Assembly (NCBI GenBank): GCA_942493105.1
Contig: OW818668.1
Coordinates: 1,200,001 to 1,232,000, forward strand
Direction: 5' to 3'
DNA: 32,000 bases
DNA from: an uncultured Erysipelotrichaceae bacterium
GTDB lineage: Bacteria; Bacillota_I; Bacilli_A; Erysipelotrichales; Erysipelotrichaceae
The notes under the pieces are model-generated. The model was not told the origin of the DNA. It made no database searches and saw nothing but the letters and a program-made list of their open reading frames with translations. The position numbers and the translations under genes are program-made. How positions within the stretch are numbered: position 1 is the first letter of the stretch; the number at the start of each line of letters is the position of its first letter. Below are positions 3,028 through 29,630 of the stretch, piece after piece.

Positions 3028-3033
3028 ATAAAA

Positions 3034-3277
3034 AACGATGAATAGGATATGTGGATTTAAGCACTTCTGTCTAGCGAGTTGGAGATGGTGTAAGCCAACC
3101 TGAACCTTAAATTTGTAACCCCTATGAGTGTTGTGGTGAACTTGAAGTAGCCACTGCCGGGTGTTCCCGTTATAGAACTAGGGTTTGAGTGAACCTGAAA
3201 AAGAGACCTTTTGGTAAACAGGGTGGTACCGCGGAGCACAAACAGCCTTCGTCCCTACGGATAGGCTGTTTTTTTGT
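3034..3277 (+). promoter_or_regulatory. T-box riboswitch leader, Asn (AAC) specifier, with terminator
   Basis: Canonical T-box sequence GGTGGTACCGCG at 3222-3233. Stem I has a GATGA...GAG K-turn base (ATAGG 3042-3046 / CCTAT 3121-3125), ATTTAAG 3055-3061 / CTTAAAT 3106-3112, an AGCGA bulge at 3073-3077 and a GGTG distal loop. AAC (3117-3119) sits at the 3' end of the specifier loop. Terminator AACAGCCT 3241-3248 / AGGCTGTT 3263-3270 followed by a T7 run. Confidence 0.85.
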
Positions 3278-3294
3278 TCTCTGGAGGAAAAACC

Positions 3295-4872
3295 ATGTGT
3301 GGAATCTTGTTTGTAGAAGGACAGGCTGATCTTGATCAATTTAAATCCTCATTTATAAAAATTCAGCATCGCGGACCGGATATGAGCCGTATCTTAAGCA
3401 ATGACTTAGGAACCTTTGGCTTTCATCGCTTAGCGATCATGGATGTCACTGAACATGGGATGCAACCCTTTGTTGATCACGATACCATGGCCGTATGTAA
3501 TGGTGAGATCTACAATGAGAAAGCCATCAAAACGATGTTTCCATCATATCCCTTTCAAGGTCACAGTGACTGTGAAGTTTTGATCCCAATGTATGAAAAG
3601 TTAGGAATCGAGATGTGTCGTGCTTTAGACGCGGAATTCGCATTCGTACTGACAGATTTGAAGCATAAAAAAATCATTGCAGCTCGTGATCCAATTGGGA
3701 TAAGACCTTTGTTTTATGGATATCAAAAAGGATCTCGCAAAATCGCTTTTGCTTCTGAAGCTAAAGCCTTGGTGGACTTATGTGATGAGGTACAGCCATT
3801 TCCGATTGGGTCTGTATACGAGAATGGAAAGTTCATCTTATATCATGACATCACCAAAACAAACACTCAAAAAATAACAGATGAACAACACATCAAAACA
3901 TTGATCAAAGAAAAATTAACTTTAGGTGTTCAAAAAAGAATGATGTCGGATGTGCCTGTAGGCTATCTGTTAAGCGGAGGACTTGATTCTTCACTCGTAT
4001 GTGCTATCGCATCTCGAAGTTCAAATCAAGCCCTAACAACTTTTGCGATTGGGATGCAGGAAGATGCGATCGATTTAAAGTATGCTATGCAAGTAGCCAA
4101 GCACTTAAATACAGATCATCATGAAATCATCATGAGTGTTGATGAAGTCATAACTGCTTTGCCTGAAGTCATACGTATGCTTGAAACTTATGATATCACC
4201 ACCATCAGAGCTTCTTTAGGCATGTATCTGTTATGTAAAGGTATTCGAAAGTGTTCCAACATCAAAGTCTTATTGAGCGGTGAAATCAGTGATGAACTTT
4301 TTGGCTATAAATATACAGACTTTGCCCCAAGTGCCCAAGCCTTTCAAATCGAAAGTGAGAAACGTTTAAGAGAACTCTATCAATATGATGTCTTAAGAGC
4401 TGATCGTTGTATCGCCGCTTGGTCTTTAGAAGCCAGAGTTCCTTTTGGTGATTTAGATTTTGTTTCAACGGTTTTAGCCATCGATCCGCAACTGAAACTT
4501 AATACCCATAAGATGGGAAAGTATTGGTTACGTGCTGCTTTTGAAGAAGGAGATTATCTTCCTGCTTCAATATTATGGCGCGATAAAGCTGCTTTTTCTG
4601 ATGCGGTAGGACATTCAATGGTGGATGCTTTAAAGGCTAAAGCTGAAAGCTTATACAGTGATGAAGATTTTAAACAAGGCTGTTTACGTTACTTAGATTG
4701 TGTTCCTTTATCTAAAGAGGCTTTATGGTATAGAGATCTGTTTGAAAGCTTCTATCCCAATCAGAGTCATTGGTGTTCCGCTTATTGGATGCCTAATCCT
4801 AATTGGGATGGTTGTGCTGTCAGTGATCCTTCTGCCCGTGTCTTAAGCAATTATGGACTAAGCGGGACATAA
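3295..4872 (+). CDS. asnB: Asparagine synthetase B (glutamine-hydrolysing)
   Basis: ORF track 3274..4872. True start is ATG-TGT at 3295 (MCGILF, the Ntn class-II amidotransferase Cys2) after GGAGGA. Contains the SGGLDSS PP-loop motif. Length about 525 aa. Confidence 0.9.
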   Translation: MCGILFVEGQADLDQFKSSFIKIQHRGPDMSRILSNDLGTFGFHRLAIMDVTEHGMQPFVDHDTMAVCNGEIYNEKAIKTMFPSYPFQGHSDCEVLIPMYEKLGIEMCRALDAEFAFVLTDLKHKKIIAARDPIGIRPLFYGYQKGSRKIAFASEAKALVDLCDEVQPFPIGSVYENGKFILYHDITKTNTQKITDEQHIKTLIKEKLTLGVQKRMMSDVPVGYLLSGGLDSSLVCAIASRSSNQALTTFAIGMQEDAIDLKYAMQVAKHLNTDHHEIIMSVDEVITALPEVIRMLETYDITTIRASLGMYLLCKGIRKCSNIKVLLSGEISDELFGYKYTDFAPSAQAFQIESEKRLRELYQYDVLRADRCIAAWSLEARVPFGDLDFVSTVLAIDPQLKLNTHKMGKYWLRAAFEEGDYLPASILWRDKAAFSDAVGHSMVDALKAKAESLYSDEDFKQGCLRYLDCVPLSKEALWYRDLFESFYPNQSHWCSAYWMPNPNWDGCAVSDPSARVLSNYGLSGT

Positions 4873-25622: not shown

Positions 25623-25650
25623 TTGTATTTTGGCAACAATAGATTACAAT
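25623..25650 (+). promoter_or_regulatory. Putative promoter of the leader / ankyrin / EF-G-paralog operon
   Basis: TTGTAT (25623-25628), 16-nt spacer, TACAAT (25645-25650). Confidence 0.4.
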
Positions 25651-25684
25651 GAAAGTAACGAACAAAGAACAGTGAGGTATCAGG

Positions 25685-25777
25685 ATGAGCAGAAGTTTTC
25701 TTGTCCAATTTGAGACACCAATTGTAACAGAGACACCTGTCTTTGTTGTCGTGAATAAGACTAAATTTGCCTTTTAA
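25685..25777 (+). CDS. 30-codon leader ORF (putative regulatory leader peptide)
   Basis: GAGG (25674-25677) lies 7 nt before ATG 25685. Peptide MSRSFLVQFETPIVTETPVFVVVNKTKFAF*. The TAA (25775-25777) overlaps the first bases of the terminator stem. Confidence 0.5.
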   Translation: MSRSFLVQFETPIVTETPVFVVVNKTKFAF

Positions 25778-25810
25778 GATGGACTTAACACGTTCATCTT
25801 TTTTATTGTT
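25776..25810 (+). terminator. Intrinsic terminator acting as an attenuator in the 5' leader of the ankyrin/EF-G-paralog operon
   Basis: AAGATGGAC (25776-25784) / GTTCATCTT (25792-25800): 9 bp including one G-U, with a 7-nt loop, followed by TTTTATTGTTT. Located 20 nt upstream of the AGGAGGA SD of the ankyrin gene. Confidence 0.65.
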
Positions 25811-25829
25811 TGAACACAGGAGGACAACA

Positions 25830-26498
25830 ATGGATCAAACAAATCAAGTATTCTGGGAAGCTGCTGCGGCTGGAGATCTCTCTAAGGTCGTATTGGCAGT
25901 CAACCAAGGCGCTGACGTCAATGTCAGAAATGCTGAAGCTCGTACCGCATTGATGAGAAGTTCTAAACGAGGTTTTGAGAAAGTCGTTCGTTATCTCATC
26001 GACAATGGTGCCGATGTGAATGCGAAAGACAACAATGGGAAGACCGCTTTGATGGGTGCTGCTAAAAAAGGGCACATCGATATCGCCAAGATGTTGATTG
26101 ATTCAGGAGCCGATGTGAATGTCGCTGATAATAAAGGCAAAACTGCCTTGATCAGAGCCAGTTTCTTAGGTCAATTGGATGTGGTAGAACTCTTGATCAA
26201 GTCTAGAGTCAATGTGAATGCACAAGATGATATGGGTAGAACCCCTTTGATGGAAGCATGCAATGCCTTCAAATTCGATGTGATCAAAGCTTTATTGGCA
26301 GCAGGAGCCAATATCAATGCCGTGGATGATAATGGATGTACAGCCTTGATGAGAGCAGCCTATATCGGTTATACCGAAATGGTGCAATACCTCTTGGATC
26401 ATGGCGCAGACAAAGAAGTGATCGATAAAGGCGGCAATAAAGCCGTGCATTATGTTAGAACCGAATGTTTGGCTGAACTTAAGCCTTTACTTAAATAG
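25830..26498 (+). CDS. Ankyrin-repeat protein (six 33-aa ANK repeats plus a C-terminal cap), cytoplasmic
   Basis: ORF track 25767..26498. ATG 25830 lies 5 nt after AGGAGGA. Six tandem units of the form xTALMxAxxxGxxxxVxxLIxxGADVNAxDxxG. No signal peptide or TM segment. Confidence 0.9.
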   Translation: MDQTNQVFWEAAAAGDLSKVVLAVNQGADVNVRNAEARTALMRSSKRGFEKVVRYLIDNGADVNAKDNNGKTALMGAAKKGHIDIAKMLIDSGADVNVADNKGKTALIRASFLGQLDVVELLIKSRVNVNAQDDMGRTPLMEACNAFKFDVIKALLAAGANINAVDDNGCTALMRAAYIGYTEMVQYLLDHGADKEVIDKGGNKAVHYVRTECLAELKPLLK

Positions 26499-26512
26499 GA
26501 GCCCCAATCACC

Positions 26513-28594
26513 ATGAAAGATTATGCAGCCTTAGATATACGTAACATTGTCTTACTGGGTCATTCCGGTGTAGGAAAGACCCAAATCGTAGAAAGTATGC
26601 TGTATTTTACGAAAGTGACCGATCGTATGGGGAAGACCATCGATGGGAATTCTGTCATAGATTTTGATCAGGATGAAATTAAAAAAGGATTATCGATTTA
26701 TACAGGATTAGCCCCGATCGAATGGAAAGATCACAAGATCAATTTCATCGATACCCCAGGCTACTTTGATTATGCTCAGGAACAAGAAGCAGGCTTAGCG
26801 GTTGCAGACAATGCCTTGATCGTCGTCAGTGCCAAAGATGGGATCCAAACCGGAACCATCAGAGCTTGGAAATCGGTCAGTAAACGTAAGTTGCCTACGA
26901 TCTTCTTCATCAATAAGATCGATGAAGAAAATACATCATTTGATAAAGTGTATGCTCAACTCAGAGACCAATTTGGAAAGTCTGTCATACCTTTTGAAAT
27001 GCCCATCATTGAGAATGGTAAAGTCGTTGGATCCATCAATATCTTAAAGAATAAAGCCTGGTACTTAAAAGACAGAAATACCCCACAAGAAGTCCCTGCA
27101 GCTTTAAAAGCTCAAGTCGATGATTACCTCAATCAGATCTCAGAAGCTGTTGCGATGACATCTGATGAGTTGATGGAGAAGTTTTTCTCAGGGGAACCTT
27201 TTCAAGAAGCACAATTGATCCAAGGCGTTAGAGCTGGGGTCAGATCAGGTGATATTCGTCCTGTGTATTGTGGCTCCGCAACCCAACAGATCGGTATTGA
27301 GCGCTTATTGGATCTGATTGGAGAATATTTCCCGTCTTATGGTGAAAAAGGGCTTATTGAAGCTAAAAATCTTAGAGGTGAAGTGGTTAAATTACGTACC
27401 GATGAAAGTGAATCATTCAGTGCTTTGGTTTATAAGACCATCATTGACCCCTTCGTAGGTCGTATTTCCTATATTAAGGTCATGACTGGGGTTTTGAATT
27501 CAGATTCGGTGGTTCAAAATGTACGTGAAGAAAAACCTGAAAAGATTGCCCAAGTCTTTATCGTCAAAGGCAAGAATCAAATCGCTGTCGGTAAGTTGTT
27601 TACTGGAGATTTAGGCTGTGTCGTCAAACTTCAAGTGACACGCACCAATGATACTTTGGCCATCAAAGGCAAAGAAGTGGTCTATGATCACATCATCTTC
27701 CCAGAAGGTTTGTTGGCGATGAGCATCTTCCCAAAATCCAAACTCGATGAAGATAAACTCAGTTCTTCCTTACAACGCATTGAAGAAGAAGATCCTTCAT
27801 GCAAAGTCGTTAAAAACCCTGAAACCCATGAAATGGTCTTATATGGATTAGGGGATCAACATTTGGATGTCATCGTCAGTAAGCTTCGAAACAAATATAA
27901 AGTCGATGTTGAACTCAGAGAACCACGGATCCCTTATCGTGAAACCATTCGCGGAACTGTTACCGTAGAAGGCAAACATAAGAAACAATCTGGTGGTGCT
28001 GGTCAATTCGGAGATGTCTTCATTACCTTTGAACCCTGTGATTCAATTGAAATGGTCTTTGAAGAAAAAGTATTCGGAGGCGCTGTACCTCGTCAATATT
28101 TCCCAGCCGTAGAAGCTGGTCTTAGAGAAGCCATGGTCAAAGGCGTTTTGGCCGGTTATAAAGTCGTTGGGGTCAAAGCCACTTTGGTGGATGGGAAGTA
28201 TCATGAAGTCGACTCCAAAGAAATCGCGTTTAAAATGGCAGCCCGTTTGGCGTATAAAGCAGGTATGCCCTTGGCTAAACCTGTCCTACTAGAACCTGTC
28301 GTTAAAGTTGCGGTCACCATCCCAGATGAATTTACGGGAGCCGTCATCGGTGATTTCAATAAACGCAGAGGCATCATCTTAGGTATGGAACCCAATGAAG
28401 ATGGCGATCAAGTCGTCTTGGCTGAAGCACCGATGAGTGAAATGATGCGTTATTCAACGGAATTGAGATCATTTACTCAAGGCCGTGGTGTTTATACTCA
28501 AAAATTTGATCGATATGAATTTGCCCCACAGCCTATTGCTGAAAAAGTCATCGCAAATTCTGCCAAAGATCACGAAGAAGAAGAATTGGAATAA
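26513..28594 (+). CDS. EF-G-like translational GTPase paralog (non-canonical G motifs; not in an str-operon context)
   Basis: 693 aa. G1 GHSGVGKT, G3 DTPGY (Tyr at the catalytic His position), G4 NKID, G5 CGSA. Domain IV loops HKKQSGGAGQFGDV and YHEVDSKEIAFKMAA are EF-G-like. Starts 14 nt after the ankyrin gene, with a GGAG overlapping its stop. Confidence 0.9.
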   Translation: MKDYAALDIRNIVLLGHSGVGKTQIVESMLYFTKVTDRMGKTIDGNSVIDFDQDEIKKGLSIYTGLAPIEWKDHKINFIDTPGYFDYAQEQEAGLAVADNALIVVSAKDGIQTGTIRAWKSVSKRKLPTIFFINKIDEENTSFDKVYAQLRDQFGKSVIPFEMPIIENGKVVGSINILKNKAWYLKDRNTPQEVPAALKAQVDDYLNQISEAVAMTSDELMEKFFSGEPFQEAQLIQGVRAGVRSGDIRPVYCGSATQQIGIERLLDLIGEYFPSYGEKGLIEAKNLRGEVVKLRTDESESFSALVYKTIIDPFVGRISYIKVMTGVLNSDSVVQNVREEKPEKIAQVFIVKGKNQIAVGKLFTGDLGCVVKLQVTRTNDTLAIKGKEVVYDHIIFPEGLLAMSIFPKSKLDEDKLSSSLQRIEEEDPSCKVVKNPETHEMVLYGLGDQHLDVIVSKLRNKYKVDVELREPRIPYRETIRGTVTVEGKHKKQSGGAGQFGDVFITFEPCDSIEMVFEEKVFGGAVPRQYFPAVEAGLREAMVKGVLAGYKVVGVKATLVDGKYHEVDSKEIAFKMAARLAYKAGMPLAKPVLLEPVVKVAVTIPDEFTGAVIGDFNKRRGIILGMEPNEDGDQVVLAEAPMSEMMRYSTELRSFTQGRGVYTQKFDRYEFAPQPIAEKVIANSAKDHEEEELE

Positions 28595-28599
28595 GCTTC

Positions 28600-28625
28600 A
28601 AGGCACAATCTTGTGCCTTTTTTTA
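28600..28625 (+). terminator. Intrinsic terminator after the EF-G paralog
   Basis: AAGGCACA (28600-28607) / TGTGCCTT (28612-28619) with loop ATCT, followed by a T-run. Confidence 0.85.
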
Positions 28626-28697
28626 TGACTTGATATGCTTTGTTGGCTTAGAAGGGTTCTTATTTATGCTTGAGTGATTTTGAAGTATAATGAGTAT

Positions 28698-29630
28698 ATG
28701 AGTAAAATCGTTGTATTGGGTGGTGTCAGTGTTGATTTAGTAGGGGTATCTTATGATCCTTTGCGTATGCAAGATTCTAATCCTGGATCAGTATCCTTGT
28801 CTTTTGGTGGAGTTGGAAGAAACATTGCGGAAAACTGTGCCCATTATGGAGCTGAAGTACAACTGATCAGTGTATTTGGAGATGATCACTTAGGTCATCT
28901 GTGTTATAAAGATTGCGTAGAAAGTGGTATAAAAGTCGACCACAGTATTTTTAAGGACCAAACTTCTTCGATGTATCTAGCGATACTGGATCCTAGTGGT
29001 GATCTGGCTTTAGGGGTATCTGATAATTCGATCTTATCATGCTTAAATTATGATTCAATCAAGAGTGCTTTATCGATGATATCTACTCAAGATATCCTTG
29101 TCTTAGAAACCAATTTAGAAAAAGAACTGATCGACATGGTTTTGACACATAAGTCCTGTATGATCGCATGTGATCCGATCTCTACTCATAAAGCAGAGAA
29201 ACTGATCGATCATTTAGGTCAGATCGATATCTTTAAACCCAACGATTTGGAAGCTGCGGTCTATTTTGGATCAGTGCTCACTTCAGATGAAGATTTCCTA
29301 GAAGCTTTACGTTTCTTTAGAAACAAAGGCATCCAAGAAATCATCATCAGTGCTGCTGAAAAAGGGATCTATGTTTCTAAAGGTGAGTCGTATTTTCATT
29401 TATTGACTCCCAGTGTCAAACTCGTCAATGCGACAGGGGCAGGAGATGCCTTCATGGGAGCCTATCTAGTCATGCGTCAGCGCTATGATTTCCAAAGGGC
29501 ACTGGAACTGGCATGTTGTGCCTCACTGCTGACCTTGGAGTCACAAAGGACTGTCCTAAAGGATTTAAGCTTAGAAAGCATCATAACTAAACATGAACGA
29601 AGTATCTTCGTAAGGAAAGACCTATGTTAA
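28698..29630 (+). CDS. psuK: Pseudouridine kinase (PfkB family)
   Basis: ORF track 28674..29630. I prefer ATG 28698 (MSKIVVLGGVSVDL...). Contains GGVGRNIA and a C-terminal GAGDAF motif. Overlaps and precedes psuG. Confidence 0.8.
   Translation: MSKIVVLGGVSVDLVGVSYDPLRMQDSNPGSVSLSFGGVGRNIAENCAHYGAEVQLISVFGDDHLGHLCYKDCVESGIKVDHSIFKDQTSSMYLAILDPSGDLALGVSDNSILSCLNYDSIKSALSMISTQDILVLETNLEKELIDMVLTHKSCMIACDPISTHKAEKLIDHLGQIDIFKPNDLEAAVYFGSVLTSDEDFLEALRFFRNKGIQEIIISAAEKGIYVSKGESYFHLLTPSVKLVNATGAGDAFMGAYLVMRQRYDFQRALELACCASLLTLESQRTVLKDLSLESIITKHERSIFVRKDLC

Follow-up and report, generated by a model that had tools for sequence, protein, structure and literature searches.

Can a paralog of elongation factor G (EF-G) have a protein partner of its own, and how might the synthesis of such a pair be controlled? 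Both questions are raised by a compact unit at positions 25623–28626 of a 32,000-nucleotide (nt) stretch of DNA, here called the window, from an uncultured Erysipelotrichaceae bacterium (GenBank assembly GCA_942493105.1, contig OW818668.1, positions 1,200,001–1,232,000 of the forward strand), the remainder of which is ordinary chromosomal DNA. In this unit a short leader open reading frame (ORF) and an intrinsic terminator precede two genes, one coding for an ankyrin-repeat protein (ANK) and the other for an EF-G-like GTPase, called EF-G2 below after the subfamily to which its sequence assigns it. The original prediction, made from the window alone, had singled the unit out as a candidate ribosome-directed module with ANK as adaptor or regulator of the GTPase; it is indeed a real module under selection, whose arrangement recurs in 125 independent related loci. 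This recurrence, together with a leader/terminator juxtaposition about sevenfold more frequent than in shuffled sequences, is far beyond chance.

ANK and EF-G2 are strictly paired

A genome scan limited to one genome per species yielded 80 EF-G2 loci, 46 from Erysipelotrichaceae and 34 from Clostridia. In all 46 of the former, which include Holdemania, Solobacterium, Amedibacillus, Faecalicoccus, Holdemanella, Absicoccus, Allobaculum, Longicatena, Merdibacter and Erysipelothrix as well as many metagenome-assembled genomes, a full-length ANK orthologue lies immediately upstream of EF-G2, separated from it by 8–24 nt except at two frameshifted or truncated matches (two loci are cut by contig ends, and in one EF-G2 is frameshifted). 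The reverse search, in which a profile of the ANK orthologues was matched to metagenome contigs, returned 80 loci, and EF-G2 follows ANK at a distance of 8–83 nt in each of the 79 that have downstream sequence. The genes around the pair are unrelated between loci. Conservation of the adjacency had been set beforehand as a test of the original prediction, and the neighbourhood survey finds it in every related genome examined, in both search directions.

Among the 34 Clostridia loci, whose EF-G2s show 46–53% identity, none has an ANK gene within ~6 kb of EF-G2. In a neighbour-joining tree rooted with Staphylococcus aureus EF-G, the EF-G2s occupy a long branch separate from canonical EF-G, and the 46 ANK-linked proteins form one clade with no intruders, a monophyly that points to a single acquisition, retained since. 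The operon is confined to this one clade, all named members of which are Erysipelotrichaceae, and pairing of such strictness appears to be undescribed. One locus labelled Segatella copri (L033, CAVKAP010000022.1) carries an ANK/EF-G2 pair of Erysipelotrichaceae type (55–58% identity), which is probably due to bin contamination.

The ANK protein, described as cytoplasmic, matches the Pfam families Ank, Ank_2, Ank_3, Ank_4 and Ank_5 above their cut-offs, with five to six repeats and no other domain, and its tandem 33-residue register is visible in the orthologue alignment. A search with the protein itself was swamped by generic ankyrin proteins, and the orthologues were therefore collected from EF-G2 loci; across their full length those of the 46 genome and 80 metagenome loci are 52–89% identical, so that ANK is conserved nearly as well as EF-G2 (52–92%). 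In 18 diverse orthologues 54 columns are invariant while many framework positions vary, and the invariant residues include arginines and lysines (R38, K46, R47, K79 and others) at repeat positions that we take, from general knowledge of ANK/DARPin structure, to belong to the binding face.

Among the papers that could be searched, none proved relevant to a link between an ankyrin protein and EF-G, in line with the earlier statement that no described ankyrin partner of a translational GTPase is known. In PADLOC, EF-G2 has no match and ANK meets only generic ankyrin-containing models, no defence system containing both components; a known anti-phage system, considered as a candidate identity for the pair, was rejected on this result.

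Two neighbouring genes may of course share an operon or a stress regulon without their products being partners, each acting on a different target, with ANK binding, for instance, rRNA, a protein of the ribosome or a client that has nothing to do with EF-G2. The basic concave face of ANK, which could bind RNA or any acidic protein, is compatible with such simple co-expression, as is the dispersed distribution of the substitutions specific to the EF-G2 clade. We nevertheless regard this alternative as unlikely, since the pairing is strict, bidirectional and tight in the 125 loci while their surroundings change, and since ANK is never found without EF-G2 in the 79 metagenome loci that could reveal its absence, a pattern typical of subunits or obligate partners.

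The GTPase belongs to the EFG II/EF-G2 subfamily

By its sequence the GTPase is a member of the known EFG II/EF-G2 subfamily and no new kind of GTPase. It matches GTP_EFTU, EF-G_D2, EFG_III, EFG_IV and EFG_C of Pfam above their cut-offs, corresponding to the five domains of EF-G (G with G′, and II–V), and its alignment with S. aureus EF-G (PDB 2xex) runs over the full length and scores 515 bits. The comparison with hidden Markov models that the original prediction had proposed gives 560–867 bits for EF-G-type models and places the protein in NF009381 (PRK12740.1-5, an 'elongation factor G' subfamily; 867 bits, cut-off 583); the EF-G equivalog TIGR00484 (616 bits, cut-off 659.4), the EF-G2 equivalog NF009377 (570, cut-off 890), the Bacteroides EFG2 model NF058620 (560, cut-off 1000) and the tetracycline-protection model discussed below all stay under their thresholds.

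The canonical motifs AHIDAGKT, RGITI and DTPGH are replaced by GHSGVGKT, KGLSI and DTPGY. EFG II has been defined by a relaxed G2 motif with Ser and by six 'type I' positions, namely Ala19→Gly, Thr28→Leu, Thr64→Ser, Ile316→Thr, Ala360→Gly and Gly379→Lys/Arg (Margus et al. 2011, PMC3150367). The window protein agrees with all six, having the Gly of G1, Ile (hydrophobic, not Leu) at position 28, the Ser of G2, Thr316, Gly360 and Lys379, and over the 80 related loci these positions are near-uniform (Gly, hydrophobic, Ser, Thr, Gly, Lys). Within EFG II it falls into the 'Clostridia' sub-subgroup (G2 motif RxxSI), which is less diverged and sits near the root (PMC3150367), and by raw score it is nearer to canonical EF-G, at the 515 bits given above, than to the solved EF-G2s (~417 bits).

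Another near-invariant change concerns the catalytic His of switch II, which is Tyr in 73 of 81 sequences, the window protein among them, whereas the decoding-centre loops of domain IV, HKKQSGGxGQ[FY]G and YHxVDS, are conserved. The same His-to-Tyr change is reported for Mycobacterium smegmatis EF-G2, a protein whose GTPase is not stimulated by the ribosome and which, under stress, traps ribosomes in the post-translocation state. The non-canonical motifs of the window GTPase, this one included, are a hallmark of the EF-G2 family to which it belongs. Like the EF-G2s of Thermus thermophilus (EF-G-2, PDB 1WDT), Bacteroides thetaiotaomicron and M. smegmatis (PDB 9K0Z and 9K10), it has five domains and is encoded outside the str operon; for none of those characterised EF-G2s, in contrast to the window operon, has a gene for a dedicated partner or an attenuator with a leader peptide been described. 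The earlier label of a non-canonical EF-G paralog is correct as to non-canonical, but the protein is not unclassified, as it falls in EFG II/EF-G2 (PMC3150367), and the accompanying remark that such paralogs generally lack an assigned function is outdated in view of the functional data on EF-G2 from T. thermophilus, B. thetaiotaomicron and M. smegmatis.

A housekeeping fusA displaced from the str operon would likewise align end to end with S. aureus EF-G, and the NCBI family name is simply 'elongation factor G'. We give this possibility hardly any credence: the TIGR00484 score of 616 bits lies below the cut-off of 659, all three canonical motifs are altered, every EFG II signature is present, the protein sits on the long branch separate from canonical EF-G, and EFG II has never been found as the only EF-G of a genome, a further one being present in every case (PMC3150367). 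The sub-threshold score, the altered motifs and the EFG II signatures support the earlier view of the gene as a non-housekeeping paralog.

Alternatively, the operon could be an antibiotic-resistance module, its GTPase protecting ribosomes in the manner of Tet(M) or FusB and being induced by drug-stalled leader ribosomes, as in the case of tet(M), vmlR and hflXr. A leader and a terminator 5′ of a gene for a ribosome-binding GTPase do resemble those systems, as far as general knowledge goes, and there is weak similarity to tet_protect models; the score for tet_protect NF012153, however, is 309 bits against a cut-off of 775 and against the much higher values of EF-G-type models, that for NF033148 is 235 against 1100, and TetM/TetO chains reach ~200 bits where EF-G reaches 515. 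Considering also that the domain IV loops are of EF-G type, that the operon lies on the chromosome, is passed on vertically and occurs throughout the family, neither patchy nor mobile, and that no alternative antiterminator like those of drug-sensing leaders was found, a role in resistance is very improbable.

Two side observations concern related sequences. The G4 motif NKxD is kept in the Erysipelotrichaceae copies of EF-G2 (NKID at residues 134–137 of the window protein) and is eroded in many Clostridia copies of the sample (NGMD, NQMD, NHLD and SKMD in the alignment of loci L041–L080), which hints at a relaxed guanine specificity of the latter. In addition, a 718-residue chain deposited as 'Tetracycline resistance protein TetQ' (PDB 7uvp_A) matches the window paralog at 417 bits, a score on a par with those of 1wdt and 9k0z, two EF-G2 structures, and much higher than that of TetM/TetO (~200 bits); its name may be misleading.

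A leader ORF ends at a covarying terminator

In 44 of 45 genome loci the start codon of ANK is preceded, at a distance of 23–48 nt (~250 nt in Holdemania), by a hairpin with a run of five to eight T residues behind it. The window copy, a 9-bp hairpin (25776–25800) preceding the T-run, begins its 5′ arm within the TAA stop codon of the leader and is present in the minimum-free-energy fold of the leader transcript. Each of the seven basal pairs of the stem occurs as three to six standard pair types among 40 distinct hairpins, with variants such as GATGGA/TCCATC, CTGGG/CCCAG, GTGGACG/CGTTCAC and CGGATGT/ACGTCCG. Because the distance between terminator and ANK is too short for an internal promoter, the ANK/EF-G2 mRNA must come from read-through.

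Leader ORFs were scored if they were preceded by a Shine-Dalgarno (SD) sequence, had 12–50 codons and ended between −9 and the middle of the hairpin. By this criterion 37 of 44 genome loci have a leader ending at the terminator, compared with 5.3 ± 2.1 (maximum 12) in 200 dinucleotide shuffles, and with the metagenome loci the number rises to 97, representing 81 distinct peptides of 19–44 residues. Of 84 distinct leaders, 38 have the first nucleotide of their stop codon exactly at −3 relative to the hairpin, and in 71 it falls somewhere from −6 to the middle of the hairpin. Each of the three stop codons occurs, the T-run most often ends 30 nt beyond the stop, and where the leader frame differs, the stop shifts into the hairpin and not away from it. 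A run of four to six T residues directly 5′ of the leader stop and hairpin (window 25771–25774; loci L003–L054 and L082–L160) is likewise kept at the nucleotide level even in leaders of a different frame, at least four T residues preceding the stop in 50 of 84. The peptides themselves are poorly conserved, sharing the loose pattern VF[LI]VQN ... LFGGV ... F-stop and, in 46 of 81 cases, a C-terminal Phe, for which this T-run codes. Farther upstream, the layout TTGnnn-16-TA[CA]AAT recurs in relatives 20–50 nt 5′ of the leader ATG, its mean best score being 9.05 as against 7.77 in shuffles; the promoter-like pair of the window scores under the threshold of a consensus promoter scan.

Leader ORF and terminator, which the original prediction had read from one sequence, are in this way conserved among relatives, the stem by covariation. 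Neither is found upstream of the Clostridia EF-G2 genes in the sampled loci, and no Rfam family matches the leader at the gathering threshold or at E ≤ 10. An attenuator that abuts a stop codon in this fashion appears, as far as searched, to be undescribed.

The leader could also be an independent small-protein gene closed by a leaky terminator, beyond which ANK and EF-G2 would be expressed constitutively through partial read-through. The loose peptide pattern with its C-terminal Phe would suit a small protein, and at −6 kcal/mol the window hairpin is weak; but the register of stop and hairpin is exact to the nucleotide in 38 of 84 leaders while the peptide drifts almost freely, the stop moves into the hairpin when the frame differs, and no room is left for a second promoter; nor is there any reason to place a plain terminator ahead of genes whose expression is required. 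An unregulated operon is for these reasons quite improbable.

Three features of individual loci were observed in passing. A GTTTGA or CTGA motif stands between the terminator T-run and the ANK SD in many loci (GTTTGA at 25808–25813 of the window). In Holdemania-type loci (L006, L007, L139, L147 and L155) the leader terminator and the start of ANK are set apart by an additional ~220 nt of higher GC content, which could harbour a second regulatory element. In Anaerotignum and Lachnospiraceae (L055–L059, L066) a palindromic box, TGTATATTGTG ... ACTGTATACA, is conserved ~60–90 nt 5′ of the EF-G2 start; by its sequence it may be an operator, in which case these EF-G2 genes without ANK would be controlled differently.

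A proposed attenuation mechanism

Pairing of the 5′ arm to upstream sequence amounts to 0.41, compared with 0.49 in shuffles, and its partners are inconsistent from leader to leader; a classical antiterminator helix was thus not found. A pause hairpin inside the leader ORF is not supported as a general feature either: the window has one (z of −2.2 for the whole leader), but the mean z over 42 leaders is −0.41, and the leader body is not unusually structured. A programmed +1 frameshift at TTT-TAA, by which leader and ANK would be fused, was rejected; the window would permit it, its ANK frame being +1 relative to the leader and free of stops as far back as 25767, but in most loci stops close that frame between terminator and ATG.

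Given that the leader stop keeps its place at the base of the terminator and that an antiterminator was not found, direct steric occlusion is proposed, in which a translation-dependent transcription attenuator, crossed by all transcripts, would set the expression of ANK and EF-G2. A ribosome at the last codons or the stop of the leader would cover the 5′ arm, block the hairpin and allow read-through, while transcription would end if no leader ribosome were present when RNA polymerase reached the T-run. The conserved T-run ahead of the stop might serve, by conjecture, as a pause site at which the polymerase lets the ribosome catch up. The original prediction had the pair switched on when translation is perturbed. 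Judged from its sequence, the anatomy of the leader fits either direction of control: the operon could turn on while translation is keeping up with transcription, or while ribosomes are delayed at the leader stop. Of the two conditions, a ribosome close behind the polymerase is, if anything, the one for which read-through is predicted.

As far as general knowledge allows the comparison, the short translated leader reaching an intrinsic terminator recalls Escherichia coli pyrBI and tet(M) of Tn916, and the T-rich tract just before the hairpin is another likeness to pyrBI. Read-through of pyrBI- and tet(M)-type attenuators depends on the position of the leading ribosome or on pausing of RNA polymerase, and in several such systems the product acts on the ribosome. 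The ANK/EF-G2 leader differs from pyrBI, tet(M), vmlR, hflXr and erm in having no antiterminator helix, no run of regulatory codons and a stop exactly at the hairpin base; with the classical trp/erm attenuator it shares a translated ORF ahead of a terminator in one transcript, but not the mutually exclusive antiterminator. By analogy, it resembles the coupling-dependent pyrBI and tet(M) leaders more than drug-sensing leaders with alternative helices.

Organization of the operon and neighbouring genes

The promoter-like element, leader, terminators, ANK gene and EF-G-like ORF of the original prediction are all found where it had placed them (Table 1). EF-G2 starts 14 nt past the stop codon of ANK, which its SD overlaps. 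The operon is flanked by a gene for a transglutaminase-like protein on one side and by psuK/psuG on the other.

Table 1. Elements of the ANK/EF-G2 operon in the window (position 1 is the first nucleotide of the window).
Element	Coordinates	Strand	Description	Basis
Promoter-like element	25623–25650	+	TTGTAT (25623–25628), 16-nt spacer, TACAAT (25645–25650)	direct sequence reading
Leader ORF	25674–25777	+	SD GAGG (25674–25677); 30-codon ORF 25685–25777 (MSRSFLVQFETPIVTETPVFVVVNKTKFAF), end TTT TAA	
Attenuator (intrinsic terminator)	25776–25806	+	stem AAGATGGAC/GTTCATCTT, 7-nt loop, T6 run	terminator scan
ANK gene	25818–26498	+	SD AGGAGG (25818–25823); ORF 25830–26498, 222 residues, ~six ankyrin repeats	
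EF-G2 gene	26497–28594	+	SD AGGAG (26497–26501); ORF 26513–28594, 693 residues	
EF-G2 motifs	ORF 26513–28594	+	G1 GHSGVGKT, G2 GLSI, G3 DTPGY	
Operon-end intrinsic terminator	28600–28626	+	strong; 8-bp GC-rich stem (28600–28619) and T-run	terminator scan

The flanking 'psuK' (28674–29630, + strand) is a PfkB kinase that reaches only 155 bits against the 540-bit cut-off for pseudouridine kinase, and it overlaps a clear psuG (Indigoidine_A, 434 bits). Elsewhere in the window, a T-box leader (RF00230, 101 bits; 3029–3259, + strand) lies directly 5′ of an asparagine-synthase-like gene (3274–4872, + strand) with Asn_synthase and GATase_7 domains.

Discussion

On balance, we consider it moderately probable that the locus represents a lineage-specific elaboration of the EF-G2 system, that is, an ANK/EF-G2 operon combining a dedicated ANK partner with a translation-dependent attenuator. 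This bicistronic operon, with its own promoter-like element and end terminator, would have arisen once, in the EF-G2 clade of Erysipelotrichaceae. Its GTPase is a full-length EF-G look-alike with intact domain IV loops and an altered GTPase centre (P-loop Gly, switch I Ser, His→Tyr). Working beside a canonical EF-G, it would bind the ribosomal factor site, either to translocate slowly or with impaired hydrolysis or to hold the ribosome. That the pair may act at this site we infer by analogy, because characterised EF-G2 relatives do. The strict, tightly spaced and bidirectional co-occurrence suggests that ANK is the dedicated partner of EF-G2, which it most likely binds through its conserved basic concave face, tuning or gating access to the ribosome; the effect on EF-G2 could be of either sign, activating or holding.

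A precedent for a small non-ribosomal protein that binds EF-G and alters its behaviour on the ribosome, as proposed here for ANK, is offered by FusB/FusC of staphylococci. FusB differs, however, in its unrelated fold; ANK has no match to the FusB family, and membership in it is not claimed. FusB, an accessory and mobile factor, has the housekeeping EF-G as its target and does not share a transcript with it.

Several points weigh against this joint interpretation of partner and attenuator. RNA polymerase of Firmicutes often outruns ribosomes, so that occlusion would need a pause. In 13 of 84 leaders the stop codon stands 9–14 nt ahead of the hairpin, where a terminating ribosome covers only part of the 5′ arm, and the loose pattern shared by the peptides leaves room for a peptide-specific arrest mechanism. 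As to the partnership, no ANK/EF-G2 fusion proteins were seen, and the EF-G2 residues specific to the ANK-linked clade are scattered over domains G, G′ and II, forming no single patch. Lastly, no canonical EF-G, as judged by G1 and G3 motifs, occurs among the 162 locus sequences, each genome being represented there by no more than a few kb; it is from the literature rule (PMC3150367) that a canonical fusA is expected alongside.

In a more specific form, which is advanced tentatively and falls short of being probable, ANK would be an obligate regulatory subunit of a hydrolysis-impaired EF-G2, for instance an adaptor that targets it to the ribosome, a modulator resembling a GTPase-activating protein or a guanine-nucleotide dissociation inhibitor, or a release-controlled holdase. 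The synthesis of both would be gated by a sensor of transcription-translation coupling, that of the distance at which the leading ribosome trails RNA polymerase, which works by occlusion at the stop codon. Were this the case, the pair would be the first two-component EF-G-type factor.

EF-G2 is among the most widespread paralogs of bacterial translation factors, and its role is still debated, having been described as a slow GTP-independent translocase in Bacteroides, a stress-specific ribosome trap in mycobacteria and an active GTPase in Thermus. For this poorly understood family ANK is the first candidate protein partner, and a partner that is never separated from EF-G2, together with a cis element that would read ribosome position, provides experimental handles on EF-G2 in gut and environmental Firmicutes. 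Bacterial ankyrin proteins are mostly known as secreted effectors, to which the proposed function, if true, would add a cytoplasmic role of housekeeping type. If true, the output of an alternative translocation or ribosome-holding factor would also be tied directly to the state of transcription-translation coupling, and a stop codon abutting a terminator without any antiterminator would constitute a compact, possibly general design of coupling sensors in Firmicutes.

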